A stretch of 64,000 bases of DNA from Thermoanaerobaculia bacterium (GCA_036395755.1 DASWCZ010000079.1:6363-70362); one strand, 5' to 3'; shown: positions 8,209-64,000, counted from the stretch's first letter. Made by a program: numbers and translations. The notes: a model not told the origin generated them from the sequence alone.

Positions 8209-8475
8209 TCAGGCGCCGTGCTTTCTCAGCTCGTCGTCGAGGTTGCGTGCGAAGAGGAACTCCTCGTCTCGGGGAGACACGTTCTTGCGCTTGCCCAACG
8301 CGGTGCGGACCTTCTGCTCCATCGCGTCGAGCTCTTTGAACGACTCCGTCAGCTCACGGACGATCGCCCGCCGCACGGTGTCGTCGTCTGCCTTCTGCAC
8401 CAGGTTCAGGTTGTCCTTCAGCTTCTTCGCGATGACGCGCGAGAGATACAGCACGCGGTCGGGCGAAGGATTCAT
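8209..8475 (-). CDS. Small conserved hypothetical protein (88 aa), translationally coupled to tal (ATGA overlap)
   Basis: ORF MNPSPDRVLYLSRVIAKKL...; start overlaps the tal stop. Confidence 0.45.
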   Translation of the reverse strand: MNPSPDRVLYLSRVIAKKLKDNLNLVQKADDDTVRRAIVRELTESFKELDAMEQKVRTALGKRKNVSPRDEEFLFARNLDDELRKHGA

Positions 8476-9095
8476 CGCTCTCTTCCCGCGAGCAATTCGC
8501 CGGAGAGCGGATGCCGGAAGAGCTGTTCGATGACCGACGTGGAGATCGCGGCGACGTCGGCGCCCATCAGCGCCGCGTCGAGCACGTGGATCGGGTTGCG
8601 CAGCTCCGAGACCACGATCTGCGTCTGGAAGCCGTAGTTGTCGTACACGCGGATGATCTGCTCGACCAAATCCATGCCGATCGAGCCGACGTCGTCGAGC
8701 GCGCCCACCGCGGGAGCCACGTAGCTGACGTTCGATTTCGCCGCGATCAGCGCCTGCGCGGCGGAGTAACAGCCCGACGCGCAGACGGCGACCTGATCCT
8801 GCGCGAGCAGCCGCGCGACCCGCATTGCCTCGGGCTGCGCGGGTAGCTGCACGACGATGTCCTTTCCGAGCTTCGCGAGCTCGCGCGCCTCCTTGTACAT
8901 GCCCTTCGCGTCGGTCGAGACCGGACCGACGCAGACCGGGCCGTCGGTCAGCGAAGAGAGCTCGCGGGCGGCGCGACGTAAGTCGACCCCGGCCTTCTGA
9001 GCGGCCGCCGCGGAGAGCCAGACGCCGTCCAGAAGGCCCCACTCCCGCACTCTTTTCGCCTCATCGGCGATCGCGCTCTCGAGGAAAAACCGCAT
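8472..9095 (-). CDS. tal: Short-form transaldolase / fructose-6-phosphate aldolase family (TalC/Fsa-like, ~207 aa)
   Basis: MRFFLESA...MYKEARELAKLG..IVVQLP...VAPAVGALDD: typical short transaldolase family layout. Confidence 0.8.
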   Translation of the reverse strand: MRFFLESAIADEAKRVREWGLLDGVWLSAAAAQKAGVDLRRAARELSSLTDGPVCVGPVSTDAKGMYKEARELAKLGKDIVVQLPAQPEAMRVARLLAQDQVAVCASGCYSAAQALIAAKSNVSYVAPAVGALDDVGSIGMDLVEQIIRVYDNYGFQTQIVVSELRNPIHVLDAALMGADVAAISTSVIEQLFRHPLSGELLAGRER

Positions 9096-9189
9096 GGGTG
9101 GCGGGGGATTCTACCCCTCACCCTTTTCGCACAGGCTCCGCGGCGAATCCCTCGGGCCTCTCGGGTGAGTTCGTCCTCGGGATCGCGAC

Positions 9190-11838: not shown

Positions 11839-11850
11839 TTATTCACGGAC

Positions 11851-11934
11851 CCCGCAGTCATTCCGAGGAGCGCAGCGACGAGGAATCTCCTCGGCGCAAG
11901 AGATCCCTCGCCGCGCTCGGGATGACCCTTCGGG
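11851..11934. repeat. Second copy of the long GTCATTCCGAGG...CGAGGAATC hairpin element, filling the gyrA-gyrB intergenic region
   Basis: gtcattccgagg...cgaggaatctcctcg...ctcgggatgac; the arms pair with 1 mismatch. Confidence 0.5.
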
Positions 11935-15469
<3,535 letters not shown>

Positions 15470-48867: not shown

Positions 48868-49170
48868 ATGCTCAAATTGAAGGGGATGCGGGAGGCGGCT
48901 CCCGGGAAACGGCTCTTCGTGATCGAGGACGAAGGGCAGCCCGCTTCCGCCGAGGCGCTGGAACGCCTCGCTTCGATCGCCCGCCGGCTCGTCGAGGAAA
49001 ACGCGCTTCCCGGCGAGTTCGAGGTCTTCGGAGAAGGCCTGCTCGCTCTGAACCTTCGCGCCTCCGACCGGACCTTCTTCCACGACGGCATCGTGTTCGC
49101 CGCTCTCGACGCCGTCAACGATCCGGGCCGCAATCCCACGCTCACGCGGATCTCAAACGAGGTCGACTAG
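48868..49170 (+). CDS. Hypothetical small protein
   Basis: ORF only. Confidence 0.3.
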   Translation: MLKLKGMREAAPGKRLFVIEDEGQPASAEALERLASIARRLVEENALPGEFEVFGEGLLALNLRASDRTFFHDGIVFAALDAVNDPGRNPTLTRISNEVD

Positions 49171-49907
49171 CCCAGGACGAGCTTCGCCGCTGCGATTAGG
49201 AGAACGAGGGCGAGGAGCCGCCGGATCGCGATCGGCACGAGTCGTTTCGCGCCAAGCCAGGACCCGAGGAGTCCCCCGGCGAGCGCGACCGCGGTCAGCG
49301 GCGCCGCCGCGGCCGGAACGCCGCCTCCGCCGGCAAGATGACCGGCGAGACCGGCAGCCGAGTTCACGAGGATGAACACCGCGGAGGCGCCAGCGGTGCG
49401 CCGCGGCTCCTCCCATCGCGCGAGGATCAGGAGAGGAGAGAGAAAGATCCCCCCGCCGACGCCCGTCAGGCCCGCCACGAATCCGAAGAGGACGCCGATC
49501 GAGGCGAGCGCGACTGCCGGGGGCGGGGGCCGCAACGAATCGCCGGAGTACCGCATTGCCAGGCGAATCGCGGCGAACAGCAGAGCCGCGCCGAGCAGGA
49601 CCCGGTGCGAGCGCGTCGGGAGCGCAATCATGCCGCCGACGTACGCCGCCGGTATCGAACCGGCGCAGAGGGTGCCGACCAAACGCCACGGCACGAGAGA
49701 CGCGGACGCGAAGCGCAAGCTTCCCACGCCCGCGACGGCGAGGTTCATGACGAGAGCGGCCGGTTTCGTCACCGGCGCGGGCACGCCGAAGAGCGCCATC
49801 GCAGCGAGGTATGCCGAGGCGCCCCCGTGCCCGACCGACGAATACAGAACGGCGGCGATCGCAACCAGACCCAGCAGGACGGCGAGCGTTTGCGGATCGT
49901 CCGGCAT
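49167..49907 (-). CDS. TauE/SafE (DUF81) family anion exporter membrane protein
   Basis: Hydrophobic 246 aa; GHGGAS...G.G.G motifs duplicated in the two halves. Confidence 0.7.
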   Translation of the reverse strand: MPDDPQTLAVLLGLVAIAAVLYSSVGHGGASAYLAAMALFGVPAPVTKPAALVMNLAVAGVGSLRFASASLVPWRLVGTLCAGSIPAAYVGGMIALPTRSHRVLLGAALLFAAIRLAMRYSGDSLRPPPPAVALASIGVLFGFVAGLTGVGGGIFLSPLLILARWEEPRRTAGASAVFILVNSAAGLAGHLAGGGGVPAAAAPLTAVALAGGLLGSWLGAKRLVPIAIRRLLALVLLIAAAKLVLG

Positions 49908-49939
49908 CGACTCGAAGGATAGGACGAACGTCGGCGCGC

Positions 49940-49993
49940 GTTCACCTTCGGTTCATCGTGCCCCGCGCCAGAATTCATTCACGCGGCGTTCAC
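49940..49993 (+). promoter_or_regulatory. Two copies of the direct-repeat operator GTTCAC-N5-GTTCAT-(CG)GTGCCCC (49940-49956) and TTCAC-N6-GTTCAC-CGCGTGCCCC (49978-49993), 11-bp half-site spacing typical of OmpR-family regulators
   Basis: Read directly, 40-95 bp upstream of the 50034 ATG. Confidence 0.45.
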
Positions 49994-50033
49994 CGCGTGC
50001 CCCTTACGCTCCTCAATGAAAAGGAGGACCGCT

Positions 50034-50351
50034 ATGAGGAAAACAGCCTGGCTCTCGTTGATCGCGTTCGTTCTCGCGATCGGCGTCGCGTCCACATCGA
50101 TGGCAAAAGGCAAGAATCACGCGATGACGATGGAGGGAACGGTGTCCTCGGTCGACCAGAGCAGGAAGACATTTTCCCTGACGAACAAGGCGGGGAAAGC
50201 GACTTCGATCTCGTGGACTGCCGCCACGAAAGTCCGGGGAGGATCGCTCAAGGACGGAGAGCGCGCCCAGGTCAGCGTCCTGACGAAAGACGGCAAGAAC
50301 ATTGCGACTTCGATTCGGATCGCTTCCGCGAAGATGGCAAAAGCTTCTTAG
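50034..50351 (+). CDS. Small secreted/periplasmic protein (signal peptide MRKTAWLSLIAFVLAIGVASTSMA), likely target of the adjacent two-component system
   Basis: RBS AAGGAGG 8 nt before ATG 50034; beta-rich Lys/Thr-rich mature part. Confidence 0.5.
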   Translation: MRKTAWLSLIAFVLAIGVASTSMAKGKNHAMTMEGTVSSVDQSRKTFSLTNKAGKATSISWTAATKVRGGSLKDGERAQVSVLTKDGKNIATSIRIASAKMAKAS

Positions 50352-50441
50352 CTTGAGCGGGGGCCTTGCGGTCCCGCGAGCCCCTCGCGGAGCACATCCC
50401 CCTCCAACCGGCCGGAGCCGAGAGGCTCCGGCCGCTTTTTC

Positions 50442-51845
50442 TCACGCTGCGGGCAGCACTGCCCGAAAGATCGCGCCCCCTCCGGAGCGCTCTTCGACCT
50501 CGATGCGTCCGCCATGCGTCCTGGCGACCTGTTGGACGATAGCGAGGCCGAGACCGGACCCCTCCGGGTGTCTCGCGCGGGCGCTGTCGAGCCGCACGAA
50601 GCGCTCGAAGATCCGCGAGCGATCCGTCTCCGGCACGCCCGGCCCGCGGTCGCGCACCTCGAAGACCACGTCCTGTCCGCGCGTTCCCGCGACGACTTCG
50701 ACGGAAGTGCCGGGGTCGGAATAGACCGCCGCGTTCGACACGAGATTCGTGGCAAGCCGAAAGAGCGCCGCCGGGTCGCCCCGCACGCTCGCCCCGTTCT
50801 CCCGGAAAAGGTCGATCTGCACGTTCCGCAGAGCGGCGATCGCCCGGGAAGCCTGGACCGACCGCTCGACGATCGCGCCGAAGTCCACCACCTCGAACGG
50901 GGGGGTCGGCGCCGTGTCGGCGCGCGCGAGGGACAGCAGGTTCTCGGCTTCACGGGCGAGCCCTCGGGCGGTGCGCTCGATCGTCTCGAGCGACCGGCGC
51001 CGGTCTTCGGGGGCCGTTTCCGGCCGCAGCGCGTCCTGGGCCTCCCCGAGAAGCACCGCGATCGGCGTCTTCAGTTCGTGCGCGGCGTCGGCGACGAGAC
51101 GGCGCTGAGCCTGGAAGGCACCCTGCAGCCGTTCGAGGAGGGAGTTGATGACGCCGGTCAATCTCTGGAACTCGTCGCCGCCCGTGGAAACGCGAACGCG
51201 GCGCGAGAGGTCGGAAGCTTCGACGGATTCCGCCAGCCGCGTGACTTCCTCGACCGGGCGCAACGCCCGGTCGAGGACGAAAGCCAGGATCGCAGCGGTC
51301 CCGACGAAACCGATCAGCACCAGGCCGGCGAGCGTGCGGTCGAGGCGGGCCAGAGTCCTCAACGCCGGCTCGATGGATCGGAAGATCACCAGAGTCGCGC
51401 CGACCGCCTTTCCTCGGAGTCGCAACACGAGGAACCGGCAGATCCGGCGCTGACCGCTGTAAGGCTCGACGGCGGTGTACGCATCTTCCGTGCGGCCGCG
51501 ATACGGCGAGAGGCTGAAAGAGCGGCTCGGGCGGACCAGGTCGCCCGAAACGGTCAGCGCGCGCTCCCCGTCGAAGAGAATCGCGGAGTGGTTCTGGAGA
51601 CGGAATTCGAAGACGTTCGCTTCCAGACCTTTCGCGAGGGACTCCTGATAACCGAGCCCCTCCATCTCGAAGTCGGAGCCGACCGCGACGGCGAGCGTCC
51701 GCAGCTCCTCATCGATGTCGCGGAAGGTGAGCTCCCGGACCGTGGTCCGGGCCCCGAGAGCGAGGAGCAGCAGGAGAACCGCGGAGAGAGCCGCTCCCGC
51801 CAACGCGATGCGAGTGCGGGCTTTCCGCGGCCGGGGCAGGATCAC
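50442..51845 (-). CDS. Sensor histidine kinase (2 TM, periplasmic sensor domain, HAMP, HisKA, HATPase_c)
   Basis: AAHELKTPIAVL H-box; GSGLGLAIV G2 box; GTG start overlaps the response-regulator stop. Confidence 0.8.
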   Translation of the reverse strand: MILPRPRKARTRIALAGAALSAVLLLLLALGARTTVRELTFRDIDEELRTLAVAVGSDFEMEGLGYQESLAKGLEANVFEFRLQNHSAILFDGERALTVSGDLVRPSRSFSLSPYRGRTEDAYTAVEPYSGQRRICRFLVLRLRGKAVGATLVIFRSIEPALRTLARLDRTLAGLVLIGFVGTAAILAFVLDRALRPVEEVTRLAESVEASDLSRRVRVSTGGDEFQRLTGVINSLLERLQGAFQAQRRLVADAAHELKTPIAVLLGEAQDALRPETAPEDRRRSLETIERTARGLAREAENLLSLARADTAPTPPFEVVDFGAIVERSVQASRAIAALRNVQIDLFRENGASVRGDPAALFRLATNLVSNAAVYSDPGTSVEVVAGTRGQDVVFEVRDRGPGVPETDRSRIFERFVRLDSARARHPEGSGLGLAIVQQVARTHGGRIEVEERSGGGAIFRAVLPAA

Positions 51846-52507
51846 GTCAGGCGGTATCCCACTCCGCGAACGGTTTCGATTCGCGAAGAAGATCCGCACG
51901 CGTCGAGCTTCCTTCGGAGACGCGCGATCAGCACGTCGATCGTGTTGCTCATCGGCTCTTCCCGCTCGCCCCACGCCTGCTCCAGGATTTCTTCGCGGGA
52001 AAGGACGCTGCCTTCCCGGCGCATGAGCGTTTCCAGGATCGCGAACTCGCGGGCGGTCAGGGAGAGCTCGGCGCCATCGTGCCACGCCATACGGCGACCC
52101 GGGTCGAGCCGCAGGCTTCCGCAGACGAGCTGCGATGGCGCGCGACGCTCGTTGCGGCGAAGGAGAGCGTGGGCGCGCGCCACCAGAACGTCGAGGTCGA
52201 ACGGCTTGCCGAGATAGTCGTCCGCGCCGTCGGAGAGTCCCTCGACGGTCGCCGCGGGGTCGTCGAGCGCGGTCAAGATCAGGATCGAACGGCCGAACCC
52301 CTTCCGGCGCGCCCGGCGACAGACCTCCAACCCGTCGCCGTCCGGCAGGCGCCGGTCGAGCACCAGGAGGTCGTAGTCGTGGACCGAGAGGAGCTCTTCC
52401 GCTTCCGAGATCCGCGCCGCTTCGTCGCAGGCGAGGCCAGCGCGTGCTAATGTCCTCACGACCAGCGAACGGAGCCGCTGATCGTCTTCCACTACGAGCG
52501 CTCTCAC
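51842..52507 (-). CDS. OmpR-family response regulator (receiver + winged-helix)
   Basis: MRALVVEDD...DLLVLDRRLPDGDG...ADDYLGKPF; C-terminal RGVGYRLT. Confidence 0.85.
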   Translation of the reverse strand: MRALVVEDDQRLRSLVVRTLARAGLACDEAARISEAEELLSVHDYDLLVLDRRLPDGDGLEVCRRARRKGFGRSILILTALDDPAATVEGLSDGADDYLGKPFDLDVLVARAHALLRRNERRAPSQLVCGSLRLDPGRRMAWHDGAELSLTAREFAILETLMRREGSVLSREEILEQAWGEREEPMSNTIDVLIARLRRKLDACGSSSRIETVRGVGYRLT

Positions 52508-52519
52508 GAAAACGACCCC

Positions 52520-52535
52520 TTCATCCCGTGTTCAC
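52520..52535. promoter_or_regulatory. TTCAT-N6-TTCAC direct repeat (11-bp spacing) in the short divergent region between the response-regulator gene and the Omp85-family gene
   Basis: Read directly; same half-site family as 49940 and 62781. Confidence 0.3.
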
Positions 52536-52538
52536 GGT

Positions 52539-54161
52539 ATGGATTCTAGTGTGCGGTCTCTGCACGGGAACGGGGGGCGCGCCCTCGTGCTCGTCCTGGG
52601 CATTCTGTTTTCCGCGGGCATCGGGATCGCCCCGGCGTCCGCGGAGGCCCCCCCGCGCATCCGATACATCCGCATCGAGACGGAGAACGTCTTCCAGGAC
52701 GCGGAGTCTTCCTTTCTGGCCCGGGCCGCCGACGCCATCCACGGCGTCACACGGGCCGAGGTCGTCCGTCGCGAGCTGCTCTTCGCCGAGGGCGACGCGC
52801 TCGATCCGACCAAGCTCGCCGAGACCGAGAGGAACCTGCGCGCGCTCGGGCTCTTTCGGACCGTGACCATTACCTCCCAGCCGGTCGGTGAAGGGGAGGT
52901 CGACGTTCTGGTCCGAGCGCGCGACTCCTGGACCACGGAGGTCTCCGGGTCTCTCGGCCGGGCGGGCGGCAAGGTGCATTACGGCGTCTCGCTCGTGGAG
53001 AAGAACCTCTTCGGACAGGGCAAGAAAGTGTCGCTCGGGGCGGACGAACGGCCCGAGCGGTCGACGCGCGAGGTCCTCTACTCCGATCCGCAGTTCCTCG
53101 GAAGGCGCCTGTCACTCGACCTGCTCTACGACCACAACAGCGACGGCGACCGGCGCCTCTTCGATTTCACGAGCGGTTTCCGCTCCCTCGATTCCCCGGC
53201 GGGAGAGACGCTCCTGTACGACCAGGGGAGACAGCAGACCCGGCTCTACGCGGAAGGCAGCGAAATTGCGCGCTTCGCGATGCGCACCCGATCTTACGAG
53301 CTGTCGGGAGGGCAGAGGCTCTCGGCCGAAGGCGACCGACCCGTCGCGCGGCTTTTCGCCGGCTACCGCCGCGAGGAGGTGACGTTCGGACCGGTCCTTC
53401 GCGAACCCGAAGGTTTCGTCCTTCCGGACGAGCGCCGCTTCGGTTATTTCTTTGCGAGGCTCGAGCTCGCGCGACCGGTTTTTTCGGTCCAGCACGACGT
53501 GGAGTTCTTTCTGCGCGACGAGGACTTCGACCTGGGAGAAGCGCTCTCCTTCGAGCTCGGCTATTCCCCCCAGGTCTGGCGCGCGCAGGAGGCGGTCCGG
53601 GCGGCCCTCCAGTGGTCGCACGGGCTCGTCTTCCCGCGAGGATTCCTGGTCGGCTCTCTCACCGCGGCGACCCGCGCCCGTGGAGGCTCTTTCGAGAACA
53701 CGCTCGCCGAAGGACAGGTCTTCGGCGTCTGGCGCCCGGACGAGCGCTCGGCCCAGACGTTCGCCGGGCGAGTCCTTCTCTCGTGGGGAGAGCGCCTCGA
53801 CAAAGAAGTCCAGCTCGAGGCCGACGGCGCGAACGGTTTGCGCGCCTACCGGCTCCACGCTTTCGCCGGCGACCGGCGCCTGATCGTCAACCTGGAAGAC
53901 CGCATCCGGTTGACGCCCGAGCTCCTCCATCTGATCGTGCTGGGCGCGGCGGCTTTCGTGGATGCGGGCTATGCATGGCCTCCCGGAAGCCCCATGCGCC
54001 TCTCCGATCTACGCGCCGACGCCGGCGTGGGATTGCGCGTAGGCCTGCCGCGCGCGTCGAGGCACGCGCTCGTCCGCTTCGACCTCGCCTACGCCTTGCG
54101 GCCGGACCTGAAGGGCCGCCGCGGCTGGCTCGTCTCCTTCTCGAGCTCGCAGGCCTTTTGA
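52539..54161 (+). CDS. Omp85/BamA/TamA-family outer-membrane protein (signal peptide, POTRA-like N-terminus, C-terminal beta-barrel ending in Phe)
   Basis: Architecture and the terminal ...WLVSFSSSQAF. Confidence 0.6.
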   Translation: MDSSVRSLHGNGGRALVLVLGILFSAGIGIAPASAEAPPRIRYIRIETENVFQDAESSFLARAADAIHGVTRAEVVRRELLFAEGDALDPTKLAETERNLRALGLFRTVTITSQPVGEGEVDVLVRARDSWTTEVSGSLGRAGGKVHYGVSLVEKNLFGQGKKVSLGADERPERSTREVLYSDPQFLGRRLSLDLLYDHNSDGDRRLFDFTSGFRSLDSPAGETLLYDQGRQQTRLYAEGSEIARFAMRTRSYELSGGQRLSAEGDRPVARLFAGYRREEVTFGPVLREPEGFVLPDERRFGYFFARLELARPVFSVQHDVEFFLRDEDFDLGEALSFELGYSPQVWRAQEAVRAALQWSHGLVFPRGFLVGSLTAATRARGGSFENTLAEGQVFGVWRPDERSAQTFAGRVLLSWGERLDKEVQLEADGANGLRAYRLHAFAGDRRLIVNLEDRIRLTPELLHLIVLGAAAFVDAGYAWPPGSPMRLSDLRADAGVGLRVGLPRASRHALVRFDLAYALRPDLKGRRGWLVSFSSSQAF

Positions 54162-54167
54162 AGAGGT

Positions 54168-54248
54168 TGCGGGGACAGGCCCCCTGCGGGCCTGCACCCG
54201 CCGCGGTCCAACGGGGACAGGCCCTGCGGGCCTGCACCCGCCGCAGTC
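54168..54248 (+). repeat. Two tandem REP-like palindromic elements (54168-54204 and 54213-54248)
   Basis: gcggggacaggccccctgcgggcctgcacccgccgc ggtccaac ggggacaggccctgcgggcctgcacccgccgc. Confidence 0.65.
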
Positions 54249-54284
54249 CACTGCGGCGCTTCCCGCCATAAGATTTTCCTCACC

Positions 54285-56894
54285 GTGACACTCCCCACCG
54301 GGTTCCGGCTGGGCCCCTACGAGATCCTCGCTCCGCTCGGTTCGGGCGGAATGGGCGAGGTCTATCGCGCTCGCGACGCCCGGCTCGGCCGCGAGGTCGC
54401 GTTGAAGGTGCTCCCCGAGGATCTCTCGCAGGACCAGGACCGGCTCTCGCGCTTCGAGAAGGAGGCTCGGTCGGCGTCCGCGTTGAATCACCCCAACATC
54501 GTCACGATCTACGAAGTCGGTTCTCACGATTCGAACTCCTACATCGCGATGGAGCTGGTCGAGGGAAAGACGCTGCGAGAGCTCCTGTTGCCGGGTCTTC
54601 TTCCGGTGAAGCGGGCCATCCCGATTGCAACGCAGGTGGCCGAGGGCCTTGCGAGAGCGCACGAAGCGGGAATCGTTCACAGGGACTTGAAGCCCGAGAA
54701 CCTGATGGTCACCCGGGACGGCCTGGTCAAGATCCTCGACTTCGGGCTGGCCAAACTGATTTCCACGGGCGAAGGGAGCAGCGAAGTCACGAGTCTTCCG
54801 ACCGAGACGGGGACGCAGGCGGGGGTCATTCTCGGAACGGTCGGCTACATGTCGCCGGAACAGGCGAGCGGCCAGCCTGCCGACCATCGCTCCGACCAGT
54901 TCTCCTTCGGTTCGATCCTCTATGAGATCGCGTGCGGCCGGAGGGCATTTCAGAAGAAGACGACGGCGGAGACCTTGACGGCCATCATCCGGGACGAGCC
55001 GGAGCCGATCGGGAAAGTTCGACCGGAAGTCCCGTCGCCGCTCCGCTGGATCGTGGAGCGGTGTCTCGCGAAGGATCCGGAGGAACGTTACGTCTCGACC
55101 CGCGACCTCGCTCGCGACCTCGCGAGCGTTCGCGACCACGTCTCGGAGATCACGAGTGCGCCGGAGCAGGCGTTTTCTTTGGGACCGAGACCCCTTCGCC
55201 GGCTCCGGCGGTCCACGGTTCTCGCGTCGGCTCTTCTTCTGCTCCTCGTCGGTGGCGTCGCCGGATGGCTCGTCGCTTCGAATAGGATACTCAGGACCTC
55301 CGCGCCCACCTTCCAGCGCCTGACGTTCCGCTCCGCCGCGCTGGAGAACGCCCGCTTCACGCCGGACGGGCAGACGATTGTCTACGGCGCAGCGCTCGCG
55401 GGCGAGCCGCGAGGGTTGTATGCCGTTCGTCCGGAGAGTCCCGAATCGCGCTCGTTCGGCATGGACGCGGACATTCTGGCGATTTCCCGCTCCGGCGAAA
55501 TGGCACTTCTGATAAATGAAGTCGGCCCCTTCGGAACCCTGGCCCGCGTCCCGTTCGCCGGCGGAGCCCCGCGGCCGGCGATCGAGCACGTCACTTACGC
55601 CGGAGCCGATTTTTCGCCCGGCGGCGAGGAGCTCGCGATCGTTCGGGGCGTGGGCGAGCGGGTTCGGCTCGAGTTCCCCATCGGGAAAGTCCTGTACGAA
55701 GGGCAGCAGATCGGGTCGCCGCGGTTCTCCCCGGGAGGCGACCAGATCGCGTTCTTCGATTACGACGGCGGTTCGGTGATGGTCGTCGGGAGAGCCGGTG
55801 GGCCCCCGCGCGTGCTCGTCAGGGGGTTCAACCTGCCGGGCGGCGCTCCCTGCTGGTCTCTCAACGGGAAGGAGGTGTGGTTCACCGGATCGACCGAGCC
55901 GGGAAAACCGAGCGGGCTCCACGCCGTCGATCGGCGGGGAAAGCTGCGGCTGGTGGCTCAAATGCCGGGCGAGCTCGAGCTCGACGACATCTCGCGCGAC
56001 GGCCACGTGCTTCTCGCTCATCACTCGATCATCAACGGGCTGTGGGGTTCCGGCCCCGGCGATTCCGCCGAACGTGACCTGACTTGGCTTGACTGGCCCG
56101 AGCCTTTCGATCTCACTTCCGACGGGAAGGCGGTCCTGTTCAACGAGATCGGCGAAGGCGGAGGGCGAAAGGGATCCGTTTACCTCCGCAGGACGGACGG
56201 GTCTCCTGCAGTCCGATTGGGCGAGGGCCGTGGCCTCGCGCGGTCGGCCGACGGGAGCACCGTGCTGGTCAAGTTCCCCGATGCGGCGGAAGGACTTCGT
56301 CTCGTCCCGACGGGCACGGGAGAACCCCGCGCCCTGCCCTCCATCCGGTTCGAAGAAATCTCCAACGCGGTCTGGCTGCCCGACGGGAAATCGTTCCTCC
56401 TATCCGCGCGCGAGCCCGGGAAAAACTGGCGGATCCACAGGGTCGACCTGGCGGACGGAAAGCCGCGTCCGGTGAGCCCGGAGGGTGTCGCCATTCCCTA
56501 TTTCGTCACGAAAGCACTCTCCCCGGACGGGCACTGGCTGCTCGCCGCGCAGCGACCGGGCAATTTCGTTCGGTACCCGCTCGATGGCGGAACGTCGCGT
56601 CCGATCGCGGGCCTCATGGAGCGGGAAGTCCCGATCGGCTGGACGTCGGACGGCCGGACGATCTTCGTCTCCGAGGGTCTCATGGTCCCGATCGCGATCC
56701 GGGCGGTGCACCCGGTCAAAACGATCCGGCACCTGGATCCGGATACCGGCCGAAGAGGCGTCGTCAAGGAGATCCGGCCGGTGGACGCGGCCGGCAACGT
56801 GAACCGTATCGTCGTGGCCCCCGACGGTCGGGCTCTCGCGTACGCCCTGCGGCGAGGCAACTCGCAGCTCTACGTCGTCGAGGGACTCCGCTGA
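54285..56894 (+). CDS. Ser/Thr protein kinase with a TM segment and a C-terminal TolB-like PD40 beta-propeller sensor domain
   Basis: GSGGMGEVYRA...ALK, HRDLKPEN, DFGLAK, GTVGYMSPEQ; then a TM segment and PD40-type repeats. Confidence 0.8.
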   Translation: MTLPTGFRLGPYEILAPLGSGGMGEVYRARDARLGREVALKVLPEDLSQDQDRLSRFEKEARSASALNHPNIVTIYEVGSHDSNSYIAMELVEGKTLRELLLPGLLPVKRAIPIATQVAEGLARAHEAGIVHRDLKPENLMVTRDGLVKILDFGLAKLISTGEGSSEVTSLPTETGTQAGVILGTVGYMSPEQASGQPADHRSDQFSFGSILYEIACGRRAFQKKTTAETLTAIIRDEPEPIGKVRPEVPSPLRWIVERCLAKDPEERYVSTRDLARDLASVRDHVSEITSAPEQAFSLGPRPLRRLRRSTVLASALLLLLVGGVAGWLVASNRILRTSAPTFQRLTFRSAALENARFTPDGQTIVYGAALAGEPRGLYAVRPESPESRSFGMDADILAISRSGEMALLINEVGPFGTLARVPFAGGAPRPAIEHVTYAGADFSPGGEELAIVRGVGERVRLEFPIGKVLYEGQQIGSPRFSPGGDQIAFFDYDGGSVMVVGRAGGPPRVLVRGFNLPGGAPCWSLNGKEVWFTGSTEPGKPSGLHAVDRRGKLRLVAQMPGELELDDISRDGHVLLAHHSIINGLWGSGPGDSAERDLTWLDWPEPFDLTSDGKAVLFNEIGEGGGRKGSVYLRRTDGSPAVRLGEGRGLARSADGSTVLVKFPDAAEGLRLVPTGTGEPRALPSIRFEEISNAVWLPDGKSFLLSAREPGKNWRIHRVDLADGKPRPVSPEGVAIPYFVTKALSPDGHWLLAAQRPGNFVRYPLDGGTSRPIAGLMEREVPIGWTSDGRTIFVSEGLMVPIAIRAVHPVKTIRHLDPDTGRRGVVKEIRPVDAAGNVNRIVVAPDGRALAYALRRGNSQLYVVEGLR

Positions 56895-56928
56895 TTCGAT
56901 ACGATCCTGATTCTTCACGGAGGACGAA

Positions 56929-58323
56929 ATGACGATCAGTCGCCGTTCGCTTCTCGCAACGACCGGCGCGGCCGCAGCGGGCTCTCTCCTCGCGCGGACC
57001 GCCGCTGCGCAGACCGGGGTCGACGGCTCGAAGTCCGCGGCGCTCTTCCTCAAGGAGGACGACGGCCTCGCGCCCGCCACGGTCGACCGGCTGCCGCTTG
57101 AGTGGCACAAGGGCCGCGTCAAGCTCCTGCAGGAGTATCTCCAGGACCAGGGCTACGCGGGCGCGCTCCTGTCGGACCGCTGGAACATCATCTACTTCAC
57201 GGGTCTCTTTCACTCGACGACCGAGCGCCCGTTCTCGGTCTTCCTCCCCGCGGACAAGATGGCCGCGATCTGGTTCCATCCGGGCCTCGATCGCGACCTC
57301 GTCAAGAGCTGGTGGGCCACGGAAACCGAGTCCTACTTCGACTTTCAGCACGCCGAAGGCGCGTTCCCGAACCTCGGCAAGGTTCAACAGGGAGAAAAAG
57401 TCAATCTCTACGAGTGGGTCTTGAAGGGGCTGAAGAAACGGGGCTACGACGGAAAGCGGATCGCGACCGATCGCGAGCAGAACAGCCGGCAGAAGGAGTC
57501 GGCCGCGAAGATCTTCACCAAGCCGACCGAGTTCAACTCGATTTCCGAACGCTGCGAAAAGATGCGCATGGTCAAGACGCCCGAGGAGCTCGCGCTGTGG
57601 CGCCGCGCGTACCGCGTCTTCGATGAAACGCACGCGTTCGCCCGCGATCTGCTGCTCGCGAAGGGCACGGACCTGACCGACTACGAGCTCGGCCACGCGG
57701 CCGAGGAGTTCGGGACCAACCTCCTGATGAAAGGAATCCGGCGGGACGGGACGCCGCACACCGCGGTCGGCATCGAGTTGGGCGTCGGGGTCCGCGTGGG
57801 CCGGGGGACCGGTTACCCCCACCCGAACCAGTTCCACCACAACCGAATCCAGAAAGGGCAGGCTCTGCAGATCGCGGGCGGCGTCGAGATCGGCGGATGC
57901 GGTGGCGAGCTGTATCGCGCTTTCCTCCTCCATCCGTGGACCGACCACCAGAAGAAGGTCTGGACCGTCTCGCGCGACTGCTGCCTCATGCAGAAAGACC
58001 TCTCGCGCGAGGGGATCGCCTGCTCGACGGTCGCGTATCAGATCCACCAGTTCCAGGTGAAGGAAGGGATGCAGAAGTACATCTACCACCGCCCCGCGCA
58101 CGGCATGGGCATGGAGGGGCATCAGCCGCCGTATCTCGCGCTCGGCGACTACACGATGCTCGAGCCGGGGATGATCTTTTCCGTCGAGCCGGGTCTCTAC
58201 GACCCGGAGAACGGGTTCGGCGTGAACTTCAGCGACGGCTTTGCCGTTGCCACGGCCGGCAAGCCCTCGCTCCAGATGTCGCGGCTGCCGTGGTCCGAGG
58301 AGTGGTGCCTGGTCAAGTTGTAG
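56929..58323 (+). CDS. M24-family metallopeptidase (Xaa-Pro aminopeptidase/creatinase fold) with a twin-arginine signal peptide
   Basis: MTISRRSLLATTGAAAAGSLLARTAAAQ Tat signal. Pita-bread fold metal ligands (D, D, H, E, E) within a 464 aa protein. Confidence 0.7.
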   Translation: MTISRRSLLATTGAAAAGSLLARTAAAQTGVDGSKSAALFLKEDDGLAPATVDRLPLEWHKGRVKLLQEYLQDQGYAGALLSDRWNIIYFTGLFHSTTERPFSVFLPADKMAAIWFHPGLDRDLVKSWWATETESYFDFQHAEGAFPNLGKVQQGEKVNLYEWVLKGLKKRGYDGKRIATDREQNSRQKESAAKIFTKPTEFNSISERCEKMRMVKTPEELALWRRAYRVFDETHAFARDLLLAKGTDLTDYELGHAAEEFGTNLLMKGIRRDGTPHTAVGIELGVGVRVGRGTGYPHPNQFHHNRIQKGQALQIAGGVEIGGCGGELYRAFLLHPWTDHQKKVWTVSRDCCLMQKDLSREGIACSTVAYQIHQFQVKEGMQKYIYHRPAHGMGMEGHQPPYLALGDYTMLEPGMIFSVEPGLYDPENGFGVNFSDGFAVATAGKPSLQMSRLPWSEEWCLVKL

Positions 58324-58325
58324 CG

Positions 58326-60673
58326 TGACGCTTTTCCCCGGCACTCGCCTCGGTCCCTACGAGATCGTCGCCCCTCTCGGCGCCGGAGGCATGGGCGAGG
58401 TCTACCGCGCGCGCGATCGCCGTCTCGATCGCGACGTCGCGATCAAGGTCCTTCCCGACCGGTTGGCGGCGGATCCGCAGGCCCTCTCGCGGTTCGAGCG
58501 GGAGGCGAAGGCCGTTGCGGCACTCTCACACCCGAACATCCTCGCGATCCATGACCTCGGGAGCGAGGGTGACGTCCGCTATGCGGTCATGGAGCTCTTG
58601 GACGGACGCACGCTTCGGGACCACCTCGAGGGAGGAACGGTCACGCCGCATCGCGCGGCGGAGTACGCGATTCAGATCGCTCAAGGTCTGGCGGCCGCTC
58701 ATGAAAGAGGGATCCTCCATCGGGATCTCAAGCCCGAGAACCTCTTCGTCACGCGCGACGGGCACGTGAAGATCCTCGACTTCGGCCTCGCTAAGGCGGT
58801 CGCGCCCGGCGCCGATGGCACCGGAGCGTTGACGGCATCGGAGGGCACTGAGCCCGGCACGATACTCGGCACGATCGGATACATGTCGCCCGAGCAGGTC
58901 CGCGGGCAGAGCGTCGACGGCCGATCGGACATCTTTTCGTTCGGCGCGGTCTTCTTCGAGATGCTGGCGGGCCGCCGCGCCTTCCGCGCGGAATCCGCGG
59001 TCGAGACGATGAACGCGATCCTCACGGAGGAGCCCGACTTCTCGGGAGCCGGAAAGAGCGTGCCCGCCGGGCTCGAGCGCGTCGCGCGGCGTTGCCTCGA
59101 GAAGGATCCCGCGCACCGCTTTCAGAACGCCCGGGACCTGGGCTTCGCGATCGAGGCGGTCTGGGGCTTGAGCGCTGCAGAGGCGGCGCCGCTGGCGGCC
59201 GCAGAACCGACCGCCGGAAGGCGGTCCATCGCCGTACTCCTGTTCAAGGACCTCGCACGGAATTCGGAGAACGCCCACCTCGGGCTGGGACTGGCCGATG
59301 CGACGATCACCGAACTCGCGACCGTCAAGTCGCTCCTCGTGCGGCCCACCGCCGCGATCCTGCGCTATCAGGACAGAACCGTCGACCCGCAGCAGGCGGG
59401 GCGGGAACTGGCAGTCGACGCGGTGGTCGACGGGAGCTTTCAGCGCGCGGGGTCGCGGCTCCGGGTCACGGTGCAGCTCGTCCGGACCTCCGACGGCCGA
59501 TCGCTGTGGGGCTCGAAGATCGATACGACGCTCGATGACATCTTCGAGATGCAGGATCAGGTCTCGCGAAAGATCGCGGAGGCTCTGCAGGTCGAGCTGA
59601 CTCCTTCCGAAGAGCGTCGCCTCGCTCGGTCGGCGCGCCCCGCAGGGGGAGCTTACGAGCTTTACATGAAAGGGAGGCTTCACCTTTCCCGCGAGACGAT
59701 CGACGACGTCAACGCGGCGATCGAATCTTTCGAGAAGGCCGCGGAGGCCGACCCGCGCTTCGCGCTCGCCTGGGCGGGTCTCTCCGCCGCTTTTGCCAGG
59801 ATGGGTTTCAGCTTCGACCCGGAGGGTGACTGGTGGGATCGCGCCCACGCGATGTGCGAGAAGGCGCTCGCTTTGGAGCCGGGCCTGCCGGAAGCACGGT
59901 ACACCCGCGCGATCCTGCTCTGGAGCCCGGTCCGCGGATTCGACGTCGCCGGAGCGCTGCCCCAGTTCGCCGCCGCGATCGCCGGCCGCCCCAGCCTCGG
60001 GGATGCGCACGAGCGCCTCGCGGTCATGCTCGTCCACATCTCGATGTTCGAAGAGGGAGCGCGGCACTTCGGGCGCGCTCTCGAAATCAATCCGAACGAC
60101 ATGATGGCCCAGACCCATCTCGCTCTCTGCCGTTACTATCAGGGCCGCTACCGCGAGTCGCTCGACTCGTCGCAGCTCGCGATTCGCGAGGCGGCTTCGG
60201 CCTGGGGCACGTACCACTTGGCGCTCTGCCAGCTGCGTCTGGGCCTGCTAGCGGAGGCGGAGCAGACGGCCGAGCTCGGCGCCCGCCGCTTTCCGGGCGA
60301 CGTTCTCGTATTCGGCGTCCGCGGACTCGTCGCCGCGTCTCGAGGCGAGGCCGCGCGCGCCCGCGATCAGATACAACTCACGATCCAGCACCGTCGTTCG
60401 TTCGGTCATTACCACCATGCGCAGTACGACGTCGCCTGCATTTATGCGCAGCTCGGCGAGAGAGAGCAGGCGCTCGACTGGCTGACCGACGCCGCGCGCA
60501 ATGGGTTCCCGTGCTACGGCTTTTTCGAGACCGATCCGCTCCTCGGGTCCATCCGCGGAGAGGAGCGATTCCGCGCCCTCATGTCCGAGCTCCGCGAAGA
60601 GTGTGCCGGCTATCGGCGGCTCTACGAAGAGTTGCGCCGCTCGCACAGCGGCTCGGGCGAGACCGCGGCTTAG
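58326..60673 (+). CDS. Ser/Thr protein kinase with a C-terminal TPR-repeat domain
   Basis: GTG start just after the M24 stop; GAGGMGEVYRA, HRDLKPEN, DFGLAK; C-terminal TPR-like helices. Confidence 0.8.
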
Positions 60674-60688
60674 GCGCGCCTTCGTCCT

Positions 60689-61417
60689 TCAAAAGAGAAA
60701 CTGGCCTCCGACATATCCGAGCAGCCGCGGCTTCTCCCGGGTCCGGTTTCCCAGTCCCGTCCCCGAGGCAACGAGCAGCAGGAGCCTTTCGCTGAGCCTT
60801 CCGCGCAGGCCGACGTTCAGAAGGAACTCCGACCGCCGAATGCCGAGCGGCCTCGAGCCGAACACCTCTCCGATGACTTCCACGTTCTTGGAAACCTCCC
60901 GTCCGATCGCGAGTCCGTAAATCCATTCGTCTTCCTCGCGCGGCCGGTATTCGAAGCCGATCTCGGCGTTTGCGGAGACCGGCCCGAGTTTCTTCTGCGC
61001 GGAAAGGGGGAGCAGGTACAGTCGGTCCGTCTCTCCGAGGCCACGCTTACGCGACGCCGCGGGGGCTCGGAGCCCGGCCTGGGGGTAGAGGGACAATGCG
61101 ACTCCGTGGGTATCCTCATCGAGAAACCGCCACTTGATCCCAAGGAGCAGGTTTCCCAGGCCGTTCTCGCCGTTTCCGACGAGCCACGGCGCTTCGATCT
61201 TGAGCTGGATCCGATCGCCGACTCCGTAGTTTGCGTCGATGAGTGGCACGCTGAAAGTCCGACCCGCGCGGCTGTCCTCTACGGTGAAGGCGACATTGAC
61301 CTCCCACCGCCGGTTTCCGGGCGTGCCCGGATCGTCGGTCAGCATCGGAGGACCGCCCTGCGCCAAAGCCGCCGAAGCAGGGAATGCCACCGCTCCCAAT
61401 AGAGAGGTCAGCCGCAT
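60689..61417 (-). CDS. Putative outer-membrane beta-barrel protein (signal peptide, alternating amphipathic strands, C-terminal Phe)
   Basis: MRLTSLLGAVAFPASAALAQ...YVGGQFLF. Confidence 0.5.
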   Translation of the reverse strand: MRLTSLLGAVAFPASAALAQGGPPMLTDDPGTPGNRRWEVNVAFTVEDSRAGRTFSVPLIDANYGVGDRIQLKIEAPWLVGNGENGLGNLLLGIKWRFLDEDTHGVALSLYPQAGLRAPAASRKRGLGETDRLYLLPLSAQKKLGPVSANAEIGFEYRPREEDEWIYGLAIGREVSKNVEVIGEVFGSRPLGIRRSEFLLNVGLRGRLSERLLLLVASGTGLGNRTREKPRLLGYVGGQFLF

Positions 61418-61468
61418 GGGACCGCTACCCTCTCACGGTTCGGATTCTCGGGGAACGTCGCGGGGCGG

Positions 61469-62668
61469 ATGAACGTCGGTCGCCGCCGCGCCGCCCGTTT
61501 CACGGACTACTTCGGGCTCGAGCGCAACGTCGTCGCGGTCGGCTCCGCGATGTTCCTGCTCGGCCTGGGGGAAAACCTCTGGAAGAGTTTCCTCCCGAAA
61601 TATCTCCAGGCGTTGGGCGCGCCGGTGCTCGCGATCGGGCTCTACGGGACCCTGAAGGACTTCTTGGATGGCGCGTATCAGTATCCGGGAGGGTGGATCG
61701 CGGACCGATACGGTCGGAGACGCGCTCTCCTCCTCTTCGTGGGTCTCGCGTCCGTCGGGTACCTGATCTACGCGCTCGCTCCCTCCTGGCCGTTCGTTCT
61801 CGTCGGCCTCGTGTTCAGCATGGCGTGGGTGAGCATGGCGAGCCCGACCCTCTTCGCGGTCGTGGGAGATGCGCTTCCCCGGGAGCGGCGTGCGATCGGT
61901 TTTACGGCCCAGGCCATCTTGAAGAGGCTTCCGATCGTGGTCGCGCCGACGCTCGGAGGGCTTGCGATCGCCGCTTACGGAGTGCGCACCGGCGTTCGGC
62001 TCGGCCTCGCGGTCACCGTGGCGCTCGCGCTCGCCACGTTCACCGTGGTCGCGAGAGTCCGGATCCCGCTCGTCGGGGAAGAGATCCCGACCCGGATCGG
62101 GGGCGTCTGGCGGTCCCTGCCCGGTCCGCTCAAGTGGCTCCTCTTCTCCGACATTTTCATCCGGACGTGCGAGGGCTTGGTCGACGTCTTTCTCGTCCTG
62201 TACGCGACGAACGTCGTGGGAGTGAGCGCGCCTCGCTACGGCGCGCTCATCGCCGTTCAGATGGCGACGGCGATCCTGGTCTACGTTCCCGCTTCGAAAA
62301 TCGCCGACCGCGCCGGAAGGAAGCCCTTCGTCATCACGACCTTCCTCTGTTTCGCGGCCTTCCCCGTCGCCGTCGTGCTCTCGCGGAGCTTTCCGGCGCT
62401 CGTCGCCGCGTTCGTGGTCGGGGGCCTTCGCGAAGTCGGCGAGCCCGCTCGAAAAGCCATGATCGTGGATCTCGCGCGCCCCGACATCCGGGCGCGGTCG
62501 ATCGGCCTCTACTACCTCGTCCGCAGCTCCGCCATCGCCCCGGCGGCATTCGCGGGCGGGCTCCTCTGGAAGATCGCGCCGTCCGTGCCGTTTCTGGCCG
62601 CCGGAGCGGTCGGCCTGGCGGGCACTCTTCTCTTTGCGCTGACGGTGGAGGAGCGCTACGCGGCGTGA
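61469..62668 (+). CDS. MFS transporter
   Basis: 12 predicted TM helices; GWIADRYGRRRALL motif A. Confidence 0.8.
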   Translation: MNVGRRRAARFTDYFGLERNVVAVGSAMFLLGLGENLWKSFLPKYLQALGAPVLAIGLYGTLKDFLDGAYQYPGGWIADRYGRRRALLLFVGLASVGYLIYALAPSWPFVLVGLVFSMAWVSMASPTLFAVVGDALPRERRAIGFTAQAILKRLPIVVAPTLGGLAIAAYGVRTGVRLGLAVTVALALATFTVVARVRIPLVGEEIPTRIGGVWRSLPGPLKWLLFSDIFIRTCEGLVDVFLVLYATNVVGVSAPRYGALIAVQMATAILVYVPASKIADRAGRKPFVITTFLCFAAFPVAVVLSRSFPALVAAFVVGGLREVGEPARKAMIVDLARPDIRARSIGLYYLVRSSAIAPAAFAGGLLWKIAPSVPFLAAGAVGLAGTLLFALTVEERYAA

Positions 62669-62780
62669 TCCCCGGAGCGCGACTTGCTTCGAATTGGAGC
62701 GGAGGACGGGCGTCGGAGAACTCGACCTCGAACGCAATTCGGACGAAGGCGCCGTTCTCGCCTGCGACGTCCTGCCGCCT

Positions 62781-62797
62781 GTTCACTCTCTGTTCAT
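62781..62797 (+). promoter_or_regulatory. GTTCAC-N5-GTTCAT direct repeat (same operator as 49940), 72-88 bp upstream of the 62869 ATG
   Basis: cctgttcactctctgttcatctcgg, read directly. Confidence 0.45.
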
Positions 62798-62868
62798 CTC
62801 GGCAAACGCTGTCACGCTTTTTGCTCTGGTTTCTTGTGGCCACATTCCTGTGGCCAGGAGGGTGACAA

Positions 62869-63552
62869 GTGATGAAGCGCGTAATTGGAATTGCGGCTGC
62901 TTTCTGCTTCCTCATTGGAGCACAGGCGGCCCTCGCCCAGACCACGGCCCACACGGAGACCAAGATGAAGCAGACGGGCCCCGGACCGAACGTCAAGGTC
63001 AAGACCGAGACCGTCGTCGGCACCGTCAAGGAATACGAGGCGGGCAAGAAGATCAAGATCACGGGTCCGAACAACAAGAACTATTCGTTCGACCTCGACG
63101 AGACTGTCCGGGTCGACGGTGCGGTCACCGTTGGCCAGATGGCGAAAGTCGAATGGGCGAAGGGGAAGGACGGCAAGGAACGCGTGAACGTGATCGCTCT
63201 CTACACCGCCCCGCCGGGAGTCGGTACCGCCGCCAGCACGGCGAAGACGATGCCGGCAGTGCACCAGAAGACGGAAAAGGTCGTCCACAAGCCCGGGCCG
63301 GACATCAAGGTCAAGACCGAAACCGTCATCGGAACCGTGAAGGAGTACGAGCCGGGCAAAAAGATCAAGGTCACGGGTCCGAACGACAAGGACTATTCGT
63401 TCGACCTGGATGAAAACGTTTCGATGAAGAAACCCGTCGCGGTCGGCCAGCGCGTCAAAGTCGAGTACACGAAGGGCGACATGGGCAACCACGTCTCGGT
63501 CGTCTCCCTCGTGAAGGGGATGAAGAGCAAAAAGGCACGCAAAGCGGCCTGA
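62869..63552 (+). CDS. Secreted protein made of two tandem ~100 aa repeats (KVKTETV(V/I)GTVKEYE(A/P)GKKIK(I/V)TGPN.K.YSFDLDE.V...VGQ..KVE..KG), lower GC
   Basis: Signal peptide MMKRVIGIAAAFCFLIGAQAALA; internal duplication read directly. Confidence 0.5.
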   Translation: MMKRVIGIAAAFCFLIGAQAALAQTTAHTETKMKQTGPGPNVKVKTETVVGTVKEYEAGKKIKITGPNNKNYSFDLDETVRVDGAVTVGQMAKVEWAKGKDGKERVNVIALYTAPPGVGTAASTAKTMPAVHQKTEKVVHKPGPDIKVKTETVIGTVKEYEPGKKIKVTGPNDKDYSFDLDENVSMKKPVAVGQRVKVEYTKGDMGNHVSVVSLVKGMKSKKARKAA

Positions 63553-63564
63553 AGCGTTCGCGCC

Positions 63565-64000
63565 TCAGCGCGGAACAGTCGCCGACAGATCCGTGTTCGC
63601 CAGACGCTGCGCGGCCTCGCGCAGCGTCTCTTCTTTTTTCGCAAAATTGAAACGCGCCCGCGTTCTGCCTCCATTCGTCGCGTAGAAGCTCGACCCCGGG
63701 ACCGCGACGACGCCCGCCCGCCGGGCCAGGATTTCGACGAACGACCGATCGTCCCGCCACCCGAGCGCCGCGGCGTCGGCCATCACGTAGTACGCGCCCT
63801 GCGGCGGCGTGAAGGCGAGTCCGGCGCTCTCGAGTCCCGCGAGCAGAATTTCGCGGCGTTCGGCATACGCCCGGCGAAGCTTCCGGTAGTACGAATCGGG
63901 AAGCGCGAGCGCGGCCCGGCCAGCCTCCTGAAACGGCACCGGCGCGCAGATCGTCAGGTAGTCGTGGACCTTCCGGATTCGGGAAGTGAGCGGCGCGGCC
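63565..64000 (-). CDS. C-terminal part of a class I/II PLP-dependent aminotransferase; the gene continues beyond the window end
   Basis: GQRVALAEPTYPVYSDAVRLA... (track ORF 63565..63939, frame open to 64000). Confidence 0.55.
   Translation of the reverse strand, partial: AAPLTSRIRKVHDYLTICAPVPFQEAGRAALALPDSYYRKLRRAYAERREILLAGLESAGLAFTPPQGAYYVMADAAALGWRDDRSFVEILARRAGVVAVPGSSFYATNGGRTRARFNFAKKEETLREAAQRLANTDLSATVPR

Follow-up and report, generated by a model that had tools for sequence, protein, structure and literature searches.

Genes and repeated elements at the locus

We analysed a stretch of 64,000 nucleotides from a Thermoanaerobaculia bacterium (GCA_036395755.1 DASWCZ010000079.1:6363-70362), hereafter the window, with positions counted from its first letter. 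At issue is a repeated element, GTTCAY-N5-GTTCAY, which an initial annotation had proposed to be an operator linking an OmpR-type two-component system (TCS) to genes for secreted proteins. The TCS operon lies on the minus strand, where the gene for a response regulator of 221 residues (51842-52507) is followed by that for a sensor histidine kinase of 467 residues (50442-51845), the GTG start codon of the kinase gene overlapping the stop codon of the regulator gene (GTGA). Converging on the kinase gene from the plus strand is a gene for a small secreted DUF5666-like protein of 105 residues (50034-50351; Shine–Dalgarno sequence AGGAGG at 50022-50027), and beyond it, on the minus strand, lies the gene of a TauE-family permease (49167-49907), both assigned by Pfam and NCBIfam. 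Divergent from the regulator gene, a plus-strand gene (52539-54161) encodes an Omp85-family outer-membrane protein with POTRA domains (Pfam Omp85 and POTRA; BamA-like POTRA region). Further along the plus strand, positions 62872-63552 encode a secreted, lysine-rich tandem-repeat protein of 226 residues. The evidence below indicates that the repeats are functional sites and that the adjacent regulator probably binds them to activate the small, Omp85 and repeat-protein genes as a local class-II regulon.

The initial annotation had placed half-site pairs with an 11-bp period at four places, and we found them at each, all on the plus strand. Two precede the small gene: a distal site at 49940-49956 (GTTCACcttcgGTTCAT; GTTCAC-cttcg-GTTCAT, an exact match) and a proximal site at 49977-49993 (aTTCACgcggcGTTCAC; ATTCAC-N5-GTTCAC) that overlaps the small gene's −35 position. 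A third, at 52519-52535 (cTTCATcccgtGTTCAC; CTTCAT-N5-GTTCAC), lies between the regulator gene and the divergent Omp85 gene, as had been stated, and the fourth, at 62781-62797 (GTTCACtctctGTTCAT; GTTCAC-tctct-GTTCAT), is again an exact match and precedes the repeat-protein gene. The exact element GTTCAY-N5-GTTCAY thus occurs twice in the window, against 0.00 expected from 100 shuffles, and the relaxed form TTCAY-N6-TTCAY four times (49941, 49978, 52520 and 62782), against 0.09 expected and a shuffle maximum of 1. All four sites are intergenic, falling in the TauE/small-gene, response-regulator/Omp85 and MFS/repeat-protein intervals, and the extra matches that the window yields with up to two mismatches are all unconvincing and within genes. 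A weight matrix was derived from 25 non-redundant sites across loci and so was trained in part on these four; with it, the four sites scored 19.3-27.4 bits, whereas the next best position in the window reached 12.3 bits. Over the 25 distinct sites, half-site positions 2-5 and 13-16 are invariant or nearly so and the spacer is variable. Two direct half-sites one helical turn apart, 10-11 bp from centre to centre, are the arrangement expected of an OmpR/PhoB-family operator. The distances to the secreted-protein genes, 94 bp to 50034 and 91 bp to 62872, agree with the 70-95 bp given earlier. The sequence GTGCCCC, reported to follow both small-gene sites, is present in the window (49958 and 49997) but varies in orthologous loci; because it is not conserved there, we regard it as incidental and rejected it as part of the element.

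Conservation of the repeats across related loci

The gene order TauE, small gene, kinase, regulator, in some cases followed by Omp85, recurs in loci L097, L098, L099, L102 and L110-L115, with small proteins of 63-89% identity. In these relatives the distal GTTCAY-N5-GTTCAT and the proximal ATTCAC-N5-GTTCAC are present without exception; the proximal half-sites are invariant among them, while the 5-nucleotide spacers, the inter-site segment and the flanks have diverged. In four further loci whose regulators are 71-79% identical (L001, L002, L004 and L005), a DUF5666 homologue has one exact site upstream, which corresponds to the proximal site of the window; the site is still upstream of that gene where the gene lies 8 kb (L001) or 5 kb (L004) from the TCS. 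In total, the small-gene operator is kept in 14 distinct orthologous loci and the Omp85 operator in 8 (L097, L099, L003, L110-L112, L114 and L115). The Omp85 gene of L102 is cut down to 241 amino acids and its operator has decayed, with the small-gene operators intact; this locus has, at 8368-9420 and 11765-12178, an insertion sequence (IS) element (DDE_3 transposase) between the small gene and the kinase gene, and the truncated Omp85 gene.

Conservation extends to the second secreted protein. The repeat-protein operator is present in 12 metagenomic orthologous loci (L081-L091 and L095; 74-100% identity) and also in L104 and L106/L107 (59-65% identity), the count being taken without L094 and L096, whose sequences include no upstream region. 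In the repeat-protein orthologues the conserved sequence begins right at the motif, also in loci with another upstream neighbour. We found 6 exact matches in the 122 kb surrounding eight orthologous regulators; the 1.23 Mb surrounding 72 paralogous regulators of other phyla contained none. Single GTTCAY hexamers are somewhat more frequent across the window than expected (52 versus 33.7), as they might be if the repeats were chance matches, or remnants of mobile or repeated elements, with no regulatory role. Against such an origin stand the excess of paired sites over expectation, the absence of exact matches from the control loci, and the conservation of position and orientation across genomes while spacers and flanks diverge. 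The comparative data effectively refute this explanation, which we consider very improbable. Because the repeats are conserved upstream of orthologues whose flanks and spacers have diverged, we conclude from the comparison of genomes that they are functional sites.

Two relatives carry additional copies. In L099, an exact inverted copy at 12192-12208, with no counterpart in the window, lies 6 bp upstream of the TATAGT box of a Ser/Thr-kinase gene and may be a lineage-specific extra target. In L003, an exact site at 12117-12133, with the same N11 spacing as described below, precedes the gene of a 662-residue membrane protein that has a sulfatase domain (LtaS/EptA superfamily). In L098 and L102, too, genes of the sulfatase family lie next to the TCS, which hints at a PmrA-like theme of envelope remodelling.

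Promoter architecture at the small gene, the Omp85 gene and the regulator operon

In the window, the proximal site is followed after 11 bp by a −10 box, TACGCT (50005-50010, plus strand). The arrangement N11-TAnnnT follows the proximal or only site in every small-gene promoter that we examined, with the −10 variants TACGCT, TAATCT, TAGGCT, TAGTCT, TAGCCT, TAACCT and TAGAGT. The Omp85 gene obeys the same rule, with TAGTGT at 52547-52552 in the window and TAGCTT in L003. Because the repeat ends 11 bp before the TAnnnT box, the operator at both genes would cover about −40 to −24, taking the −10 box to lie at −12 to −7. At these predicted starts the site thus takes the place of the −35 element some 10-11 bp before the −10 box, as is usual for the OmpR/PhoB family, and the 11-bp period that the annotation had ascribed to this family is seen together with a class-II placement at the small and Omp85 genes. 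No canonical −35/−10 pair was detected in 49800-52700, which fits activator-dependent promoters.

The regulator/Omp85 site adjoins a second conserved block. Positions 52543-52552 (ATTCTAGTGT) contain overlapping candidate −10 boxes on the two strands, TAGTGT for the Omp85 gene (plus) and TAGAAT for the regulator operon (minus), which share CTAG. The block is conserved in all related loci, including at non-coding positions in L003, L099 and L110-L115, and TAGAAT, 7 bp from the operator on the regulator strand, is kept in all loci including L102. This suggests a pair of overlapping divergent −10 boxes beside one operator, and makes negative autoregulation of the regulator operon possible.

Several of these transcripts may lack a leader. 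In contrast to the small gene of the window, which has a 23-nucleotide leader with AGGAGG, the DUF5666 genes of L001, L002, L004 and L005 have their start codon (ATG or GTG) 7-9 nucleotides after the −10 box and no Shine–Dalgarno sequence. The Omp85 genes of L003, L099, L110, L112 and L114 share this layout, starting 7 nucleotides after a TAGTGT-type box. With start codons so close to the −10 box, such mRNAs would be leaderless. The Omp85 start in the window is itself uncertain, since the position at which relatives start reads CTG (52560) and an in-frame ATG lies 3 nucleotides after the site; the candidates are ATG 52539, CTG 52560 and GTG 52587. L097, the closest relative, resembles the window in having both the CTG and the ATG, and carries at 5335-5357 a 21-bp duplication (ggcATGAATTCTgcttccgc) between the operator and the Omp85 start that copies the ATG and part of the −10 block.

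On the opposite side of the locus, a minus-strand TATCCT (49917-49922) lies 9 nucleotides upstream of the TauE start, with TATNCT in relatives, and suggests a near-leaderless TauE mRNA. In the window, the −35 position for this box falls on the first half-site of the distal operator. We rejected the distal site as a TauE operator: anywhere from 1 to 17 bp separate it from the TauE −10 box, depending on the genome, and L097 has the site but no TauE gene.

Promoter and leader of the repeat-protein gene

The repeat-protein gene has a different promoter. Downstream of its operator lies a conserved core-promoter block, 62810-62825 (plus strand; TGTCACGCTTTTTGCT), with an invariant core C-G-CA-G--T-TTG in all repeat-protein orthologues, including those without an operator. 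The distance from operator to block is 11-13 bp, except in L106/L107, where it is 22 bp. As a sigma-70 −10 box the block is poor. It departs from the sigma-54 consensus TGGCACG-N4-TTGCW by one mismatch (GG to GT) and is the sole match with at most two mismatches in the 64 kb, with 0.26 matches expected by chance at one mismatch or fewer. Orthologues carry either GT..GC or GG..GA, such that GG or GC is always imperfect. The geometry fits, but with an imperfect consensus and a chance expectation that is not negligible, we regard the block as no more than a candidate sigma-54 promoter. Readings as an extracytoplasmic function (ECF)-type promoter or as a −35 element (TTGCTC) were rejected because the downstream partner is not conserved, as was TGTCAC as a third in-phase half-site, which is 18 bp out of phase.

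The 5′ untranslated region (5′ UTR) of this gene contains a predicted hairpin at 62829-62866 (plus strand), with an inner stem at 62837-62856 and a lower stem in which a pyrimidine run pairs with the Shine–Dalgarno sequence GGAGG. In single-sequence folds, every repeat-protein orthologue can form a hairpin that pairs the Shine–Dalgarno sequence (at the same place in L082-L106), and the stems differ among orthologues (TGGCCAC/GTGGCCA versus CGGCCGC/GCGGCCG). The hairpin could serve in translational control or mRNA stabilization. RNAalifold gave no consensus structure for the 5′ UTR, as the aligned 3′ arms stand one column out of register. A long-range TGTCAC/GTGACA pairing, predicted for the window, was discarded as it is not predicted for the orthologues.

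The arrangement of sites and promoters also bears on the direction of control. The adjacent regulator might bind mainly as a repressor or modulator, occluding the TauE and regulator promoters or modulating the sigma-54-type promoter. Such a role would be in keeping with the position of 52519-52535 just downstream of the conserved TAGAAT on the regulator strand, with the overlap of the distal site and the TauE −35 position, with the inverted copy beside the Ser/Thr-kinase box of L099, and with the persistence of the −24/−12-like repeat-protein core promoter where the site is missing. By contrast, the small and Omp85 promoters, with their strict N11-TAnnnT spacing and missing −35 element, bear the signature of activator dependence, the spacing to the TauE box drifts between genomes, and the TGTCAC variant of the putative sigma-54 promoter lacks the GG that is nearly invariant in promoters of that class. 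We therefore hold repression or modulation as the main role to be rather unlikely, and favour activation.

Identity of the regulator and its kinase

Domain matches bear out the proposal of an OmpR-type TCS at 50442-52507. The regulator matches Pfam Response_reg (82 bits) and Trans_reg_C (98 bits), and the kinase has two transmembrane segments, a periplasmic domain, HAMP, HisKA and HATPase; a receiver and winged-helix regulator adjoining its cognate kinase is the organization typical of the OmpR/PhoB family. The nearest solved relatives of the regulator are BasR/PmrA (E 4.5e-43), and its best NCBIfam match is PmrA, at 182.7 bits against an equivalog cut-off of 330. The kinase best matches the heavy-metal sensor subfamily (203.9 bits versus a cut-off of 292.55), and the regulator scores 164.9 against 279.2 for the heavy-metal subfamily. 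PhoB (162.5 versus 296.2) and PhoR (154 versus 334.2, aligned over the kinase core only) are also below their equivalog cut-offs, and neither protein reaches any NCBIfam equivalog cut-off. The domain scan detected no PAS domain in the kinase, and the flanks of the window locus and of the relatives' loci contain no pst, phoU or phosphatase genes. The scores and the lack of a PAS domain and of Pho-gene linkage thus all speak against a PhoB/PhoR regulon, and the missed PhoB and PhoR cut-offs indicate that the regulator and kinase are not themselves the Pho system. Nor does the regulator qualify as a PmrA/BasR orthologue, given its score and a half-site of GTTCAY rather than YTTAAK. By sequence, it is an OmpR/PhoB-family regulator nearest to PmrA/BasR and the orthologue of no named regulator.

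The closest orthologues of the regulator (71-79% identical) come from metagenome-assembled genomes of Acidobacteriota/Thermoanaerobaculia. Among aligned orthologues the recognition helix, PMSNTIDVLIARLR, is nearly invariant. It has a DVLI core in common with TorR, where PhoB has DVHI and BasR EVHI; as a clue to binding, this likeness to TorR is suggestive only.

Predicted folds of the secreted proteins

The small protein, whose signal peptide can be read directly from the sequence, scores 24.8 bits against Pfam DUF5666 (PF18914), for which the gathering cut-off is 27; many of its close homologues, among 64 homologues in all, carry a precomputed PF18914 match. Its AlphaFold model is a six-stranded barrel (core predicted local distance difference test (pLDDT) score above 90), and its best Foldseek matches are to CusF (E 5e-5, TM-score 0.72-0.76), followed by OB-fold and cold-shock domains. 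CusF is a periplasmic Cu/Ag chaperone. Residues H29 and W61 are nearly invariant, and an N-terminal H-x-M-x-M occurs only in the window and its close relatives, so metal binding by the small protein is possible but unproven.

The initial annotation had described both secreted proteins as lysine-rich repeat proteins. Lysine does account for 11% of residues in the small protein and 15% in the repeat protein, but the repeats belong to the 62872 product, whose two halves are 60% identical, and the 50034 product has a single domain. The repeat protein has 708 homologues, and its low-confidence model (pLDDT 57.6) shows two barrels matching CusF and multi-cold-shock-domain folds. An hhalign comparison of the two families gave a probability of 71% (E 3.6e-5). 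Both secreted targets are thus predicted to be built from CusF-like OB-fold barrels, one in the small protein and two in tandem in the repeat protein.

A proposed local regulon

The motif with its enrichment, conservation and geometry, the gene families and the folds are results of the analysis, whereas we infer the binding protein (from linkage), activation rather than repression, autoregulation and the signal, as follows. The membrane kinase (50442-51845) would phosphorylate the adjacent regulator, a dimer of which would bind head-to-tail on two GTTCAY hexamers 11 bp apart. At the small gene, through the proximal site, and at the Omp85 gene, the regulator would replace the −35 element and recruit sigma-70 RNA polymerase; binding at the distal site (49940) is probably cooperative with this. 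Since 52519-52535 is oriented and spaced as a promoter element of the Omp85 gene, that gene is a probable third target. The same regulator would control the 62872 gene through a site upstream of the separate conserved core promoter, and the regulator/Omp85 site, just downstream of TAGAAT, may hold down expression of the regulator's own operon, in the manner of TorR. Together these genes would form a small envelope regulon comprising two secreted CusF-like OB-fold proteins and an Omp85-type outer-membrane protein, and our best guess for the signal is envelope or metal stress. Control of the secreted-protein genes by this kinase and regulator, as proposed in the initial annotation, is supported by phylogenetic footprinting and synteny, the sites flanking the TCS operon on both sides in orthologous loci.

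Several observations weigh against this interpretation. The sole canonical in-frame Omp85 start near the site is the ATG 3 nucleotides downstream of it, which misfits a simple class-II promoter, and the offset between distal and proximal sites at the small gene, about 35-37 bp as measured in four relatives, is no multiple of 11. The repeat-protein promoter breaks the N11 rule, its core being closer to a sigma-54 −24/−12 element than to a sigma-70 −10 box, and several repeat-protein orthologues (L092/93, L105 and L108/109) keep that core promoter with no operator. The orthologous regulator loci L006-L008 have no site, even when weaker sites were sought, and one of these loci has full 10-kb flanks. 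The half-site and its 11-bp period also equal those of the actinobacterial PhoP PHO box (GTTCACC; PMC4415409). Finally, our matrix detects a conserved ATTCAT-N5-GTTCAY about 95 bp before PhoX alkaline phosphatase genes in six Streptomyces loci (L026, L037, L038, L048, L052 and L064; for example, L048 13792-13808). These loci had entered the comparison by chance, and the sites are presumably PhoP PHO boxes.

The last points lead to the main rival, as a motif type common to several regulators could be read by another OmpR-family protein. In that case another OmpR/PhoB-family regulator of the genome, such as a phosphate regulator, would bind the operators and the adjacency of the TCS would be incidental. 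Apart from the PHO-box likeness, the extra L003 site before the sulfatase-family membrane protein and the L008 locus, where the TCS is present with no site within 10 kb, would suit such a binder. In many genomes, however, the TCS operon has sites on either side, one of them in the region upstream of the regulator gene itself; the flanks hold no Pho genes; and the recognition helix is nearly invariant across a clade in which the motif is invariant too. The tight, repeated linkage to this TCS argues against another binder, an explanation that we consider unlikely. We therefore retain the adjacent regulator as the probable activator.

A more elaborate version of this activator scheme would make the locus, in uncultured Thermoanaerobaculia, a self-contained envelope module of a kind not described before, working as a toggle. 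One operator within back-to-back −10 boxes would switch a leaderless Omp85/POTRA transporter gene on while throttling the regulator's own operon, and the OB-fold proteins, as cargo or partners of Omp85, would be co-induced by a metal or envelope signal, with an OmpR-type input acting at a sigma-54-like promoter. We regard this combination as unlikely.

Comparison with known systems

In PmrA-regulated promoters, the PmrA box consists of two hexanucleotide repeats with a five-nucleotide gap and overlaps the −35 position (PMC10570014). The operators described here have the same format and, at the small and Omp85 genes, a predicted sigma-70 class-II placement, and in both systems the regulator shares an operon with its kinase; the sulfatase-family gene with a site in L003 belongs to the superfamily of EptA. 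The differences lie in the half-site (GTTCAY versus YTTAAK), in the score of the regulator, noted above, in the targets, which here are OB-fold secreted proteins and Omp85 rather than lipopolysaccharide-modification enzymes, and in the phylum (Acidobacteriota versus Enterobacteria).

PhoB occupies −25 to −41 at pstS (PMC10570014), and the PHO box of Streptomyces PhoP is made of direct-repeat units with the core GTTCACC (PMC4415409). Like these boxes, the repeats have an 11-bp period and would replace the −35 element, at about −24 to −40, and their half-site core equals that of the Streptomyces box. Unlike PhoB/PhoR, however, the regulator and kinase score below the equivalog cut-offs, the kinase matches PhoR over its core only and lacks a PAS domain, and no phosphate-acquisition genes are found among the targets or neighbours here.

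In Escherichia coli, the region between the divergent torR and torC genes contains CTGTTCATAT boxes that TorR binds, boxes 1 and 2 having a period of 10 bp (PMC9239176). A high-affinity TorR site serves both torR autoregulation and torCAD activation, according to the title of a paper by Ansaldi et al. (2000) cited in PMC5294996. The half-site is shared with the window (62779-62797, CTGTTCACTCTCTGTTCAT), as are the placement between divergent regulator and target genes and, in the recognition helix, T-x-D-V-L-I-x-R-L-R. By contrast, the tor boxes have a 10-bp rather than an 11-bp period, TorR and this regulator are only 33% identical, the TorS kinase is a hybrid that has a separate binding protein, and the targets are unrelated. 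The CusRS-CusF system resembles the locus in the best match of the kinase, the heavy-metal sensor subfamily, and in the predicted CusF fold and H-x-M-x-M of the small target. It differs in that the kinase score of 203.9 is below the 292.55 cut-off, the locus has no RND efflux system and the methionine residues are not conserved in distant orthologues. The CusR box is a different, palindromic sequence.

The motif type is thus already known from the PhoP PHO box and the TorR box, and the system is an ordinary OmpR/PhoB class-II local regulon; as the mechanism is of the textbook kind, the value of the analysis is annotational rather than conceptual. It supplies an explicit operator sequence, a promoter arrangement and a probable core regulon of three genes for a TCS of the Thermoanaerobaculia (Acidobacteriota), which are widespread in soil but have seen hardly any experimental genetics, and the motif is conserved in related uncultured soil Acidobacteriota. 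It also gives a regulatory context to two secreted families of obscure role, the DUF5666-like proteins and the tandem OB-fold proteins, the latter with more than 700 members. The GTTCAY/11-bp box of Streptomyces PhoP and E. coli TorR is apparently used by a PmrA-like regulator in another phylum, so that motif similarity alone does not suffice to name the regulator.

Other features of the locus

Within 49000-64000, Rfam gave no relevant family. An intrinsic terminator, a hairpin with a T-run on the plus strand at 50409-50434, lies between the convergent small gene and kinase gene. The Omp85 gene is followed, in order, by genes for two Ser/Thr kinases, an M24 peptidase, a hypothetical protein and an MFS transporter. 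The stretch separating the end of the Omp85 reading frame from the Ser/Thr-kinase start (54170-54250) contains a 40-bp unit twice in tandem with a 92% match, and each copy holds a GC-rich hairpin (CAGGCCC..GGGCCTG); this unit may be a terminator or a repetitive extragenic palindromic (REP)-like element.

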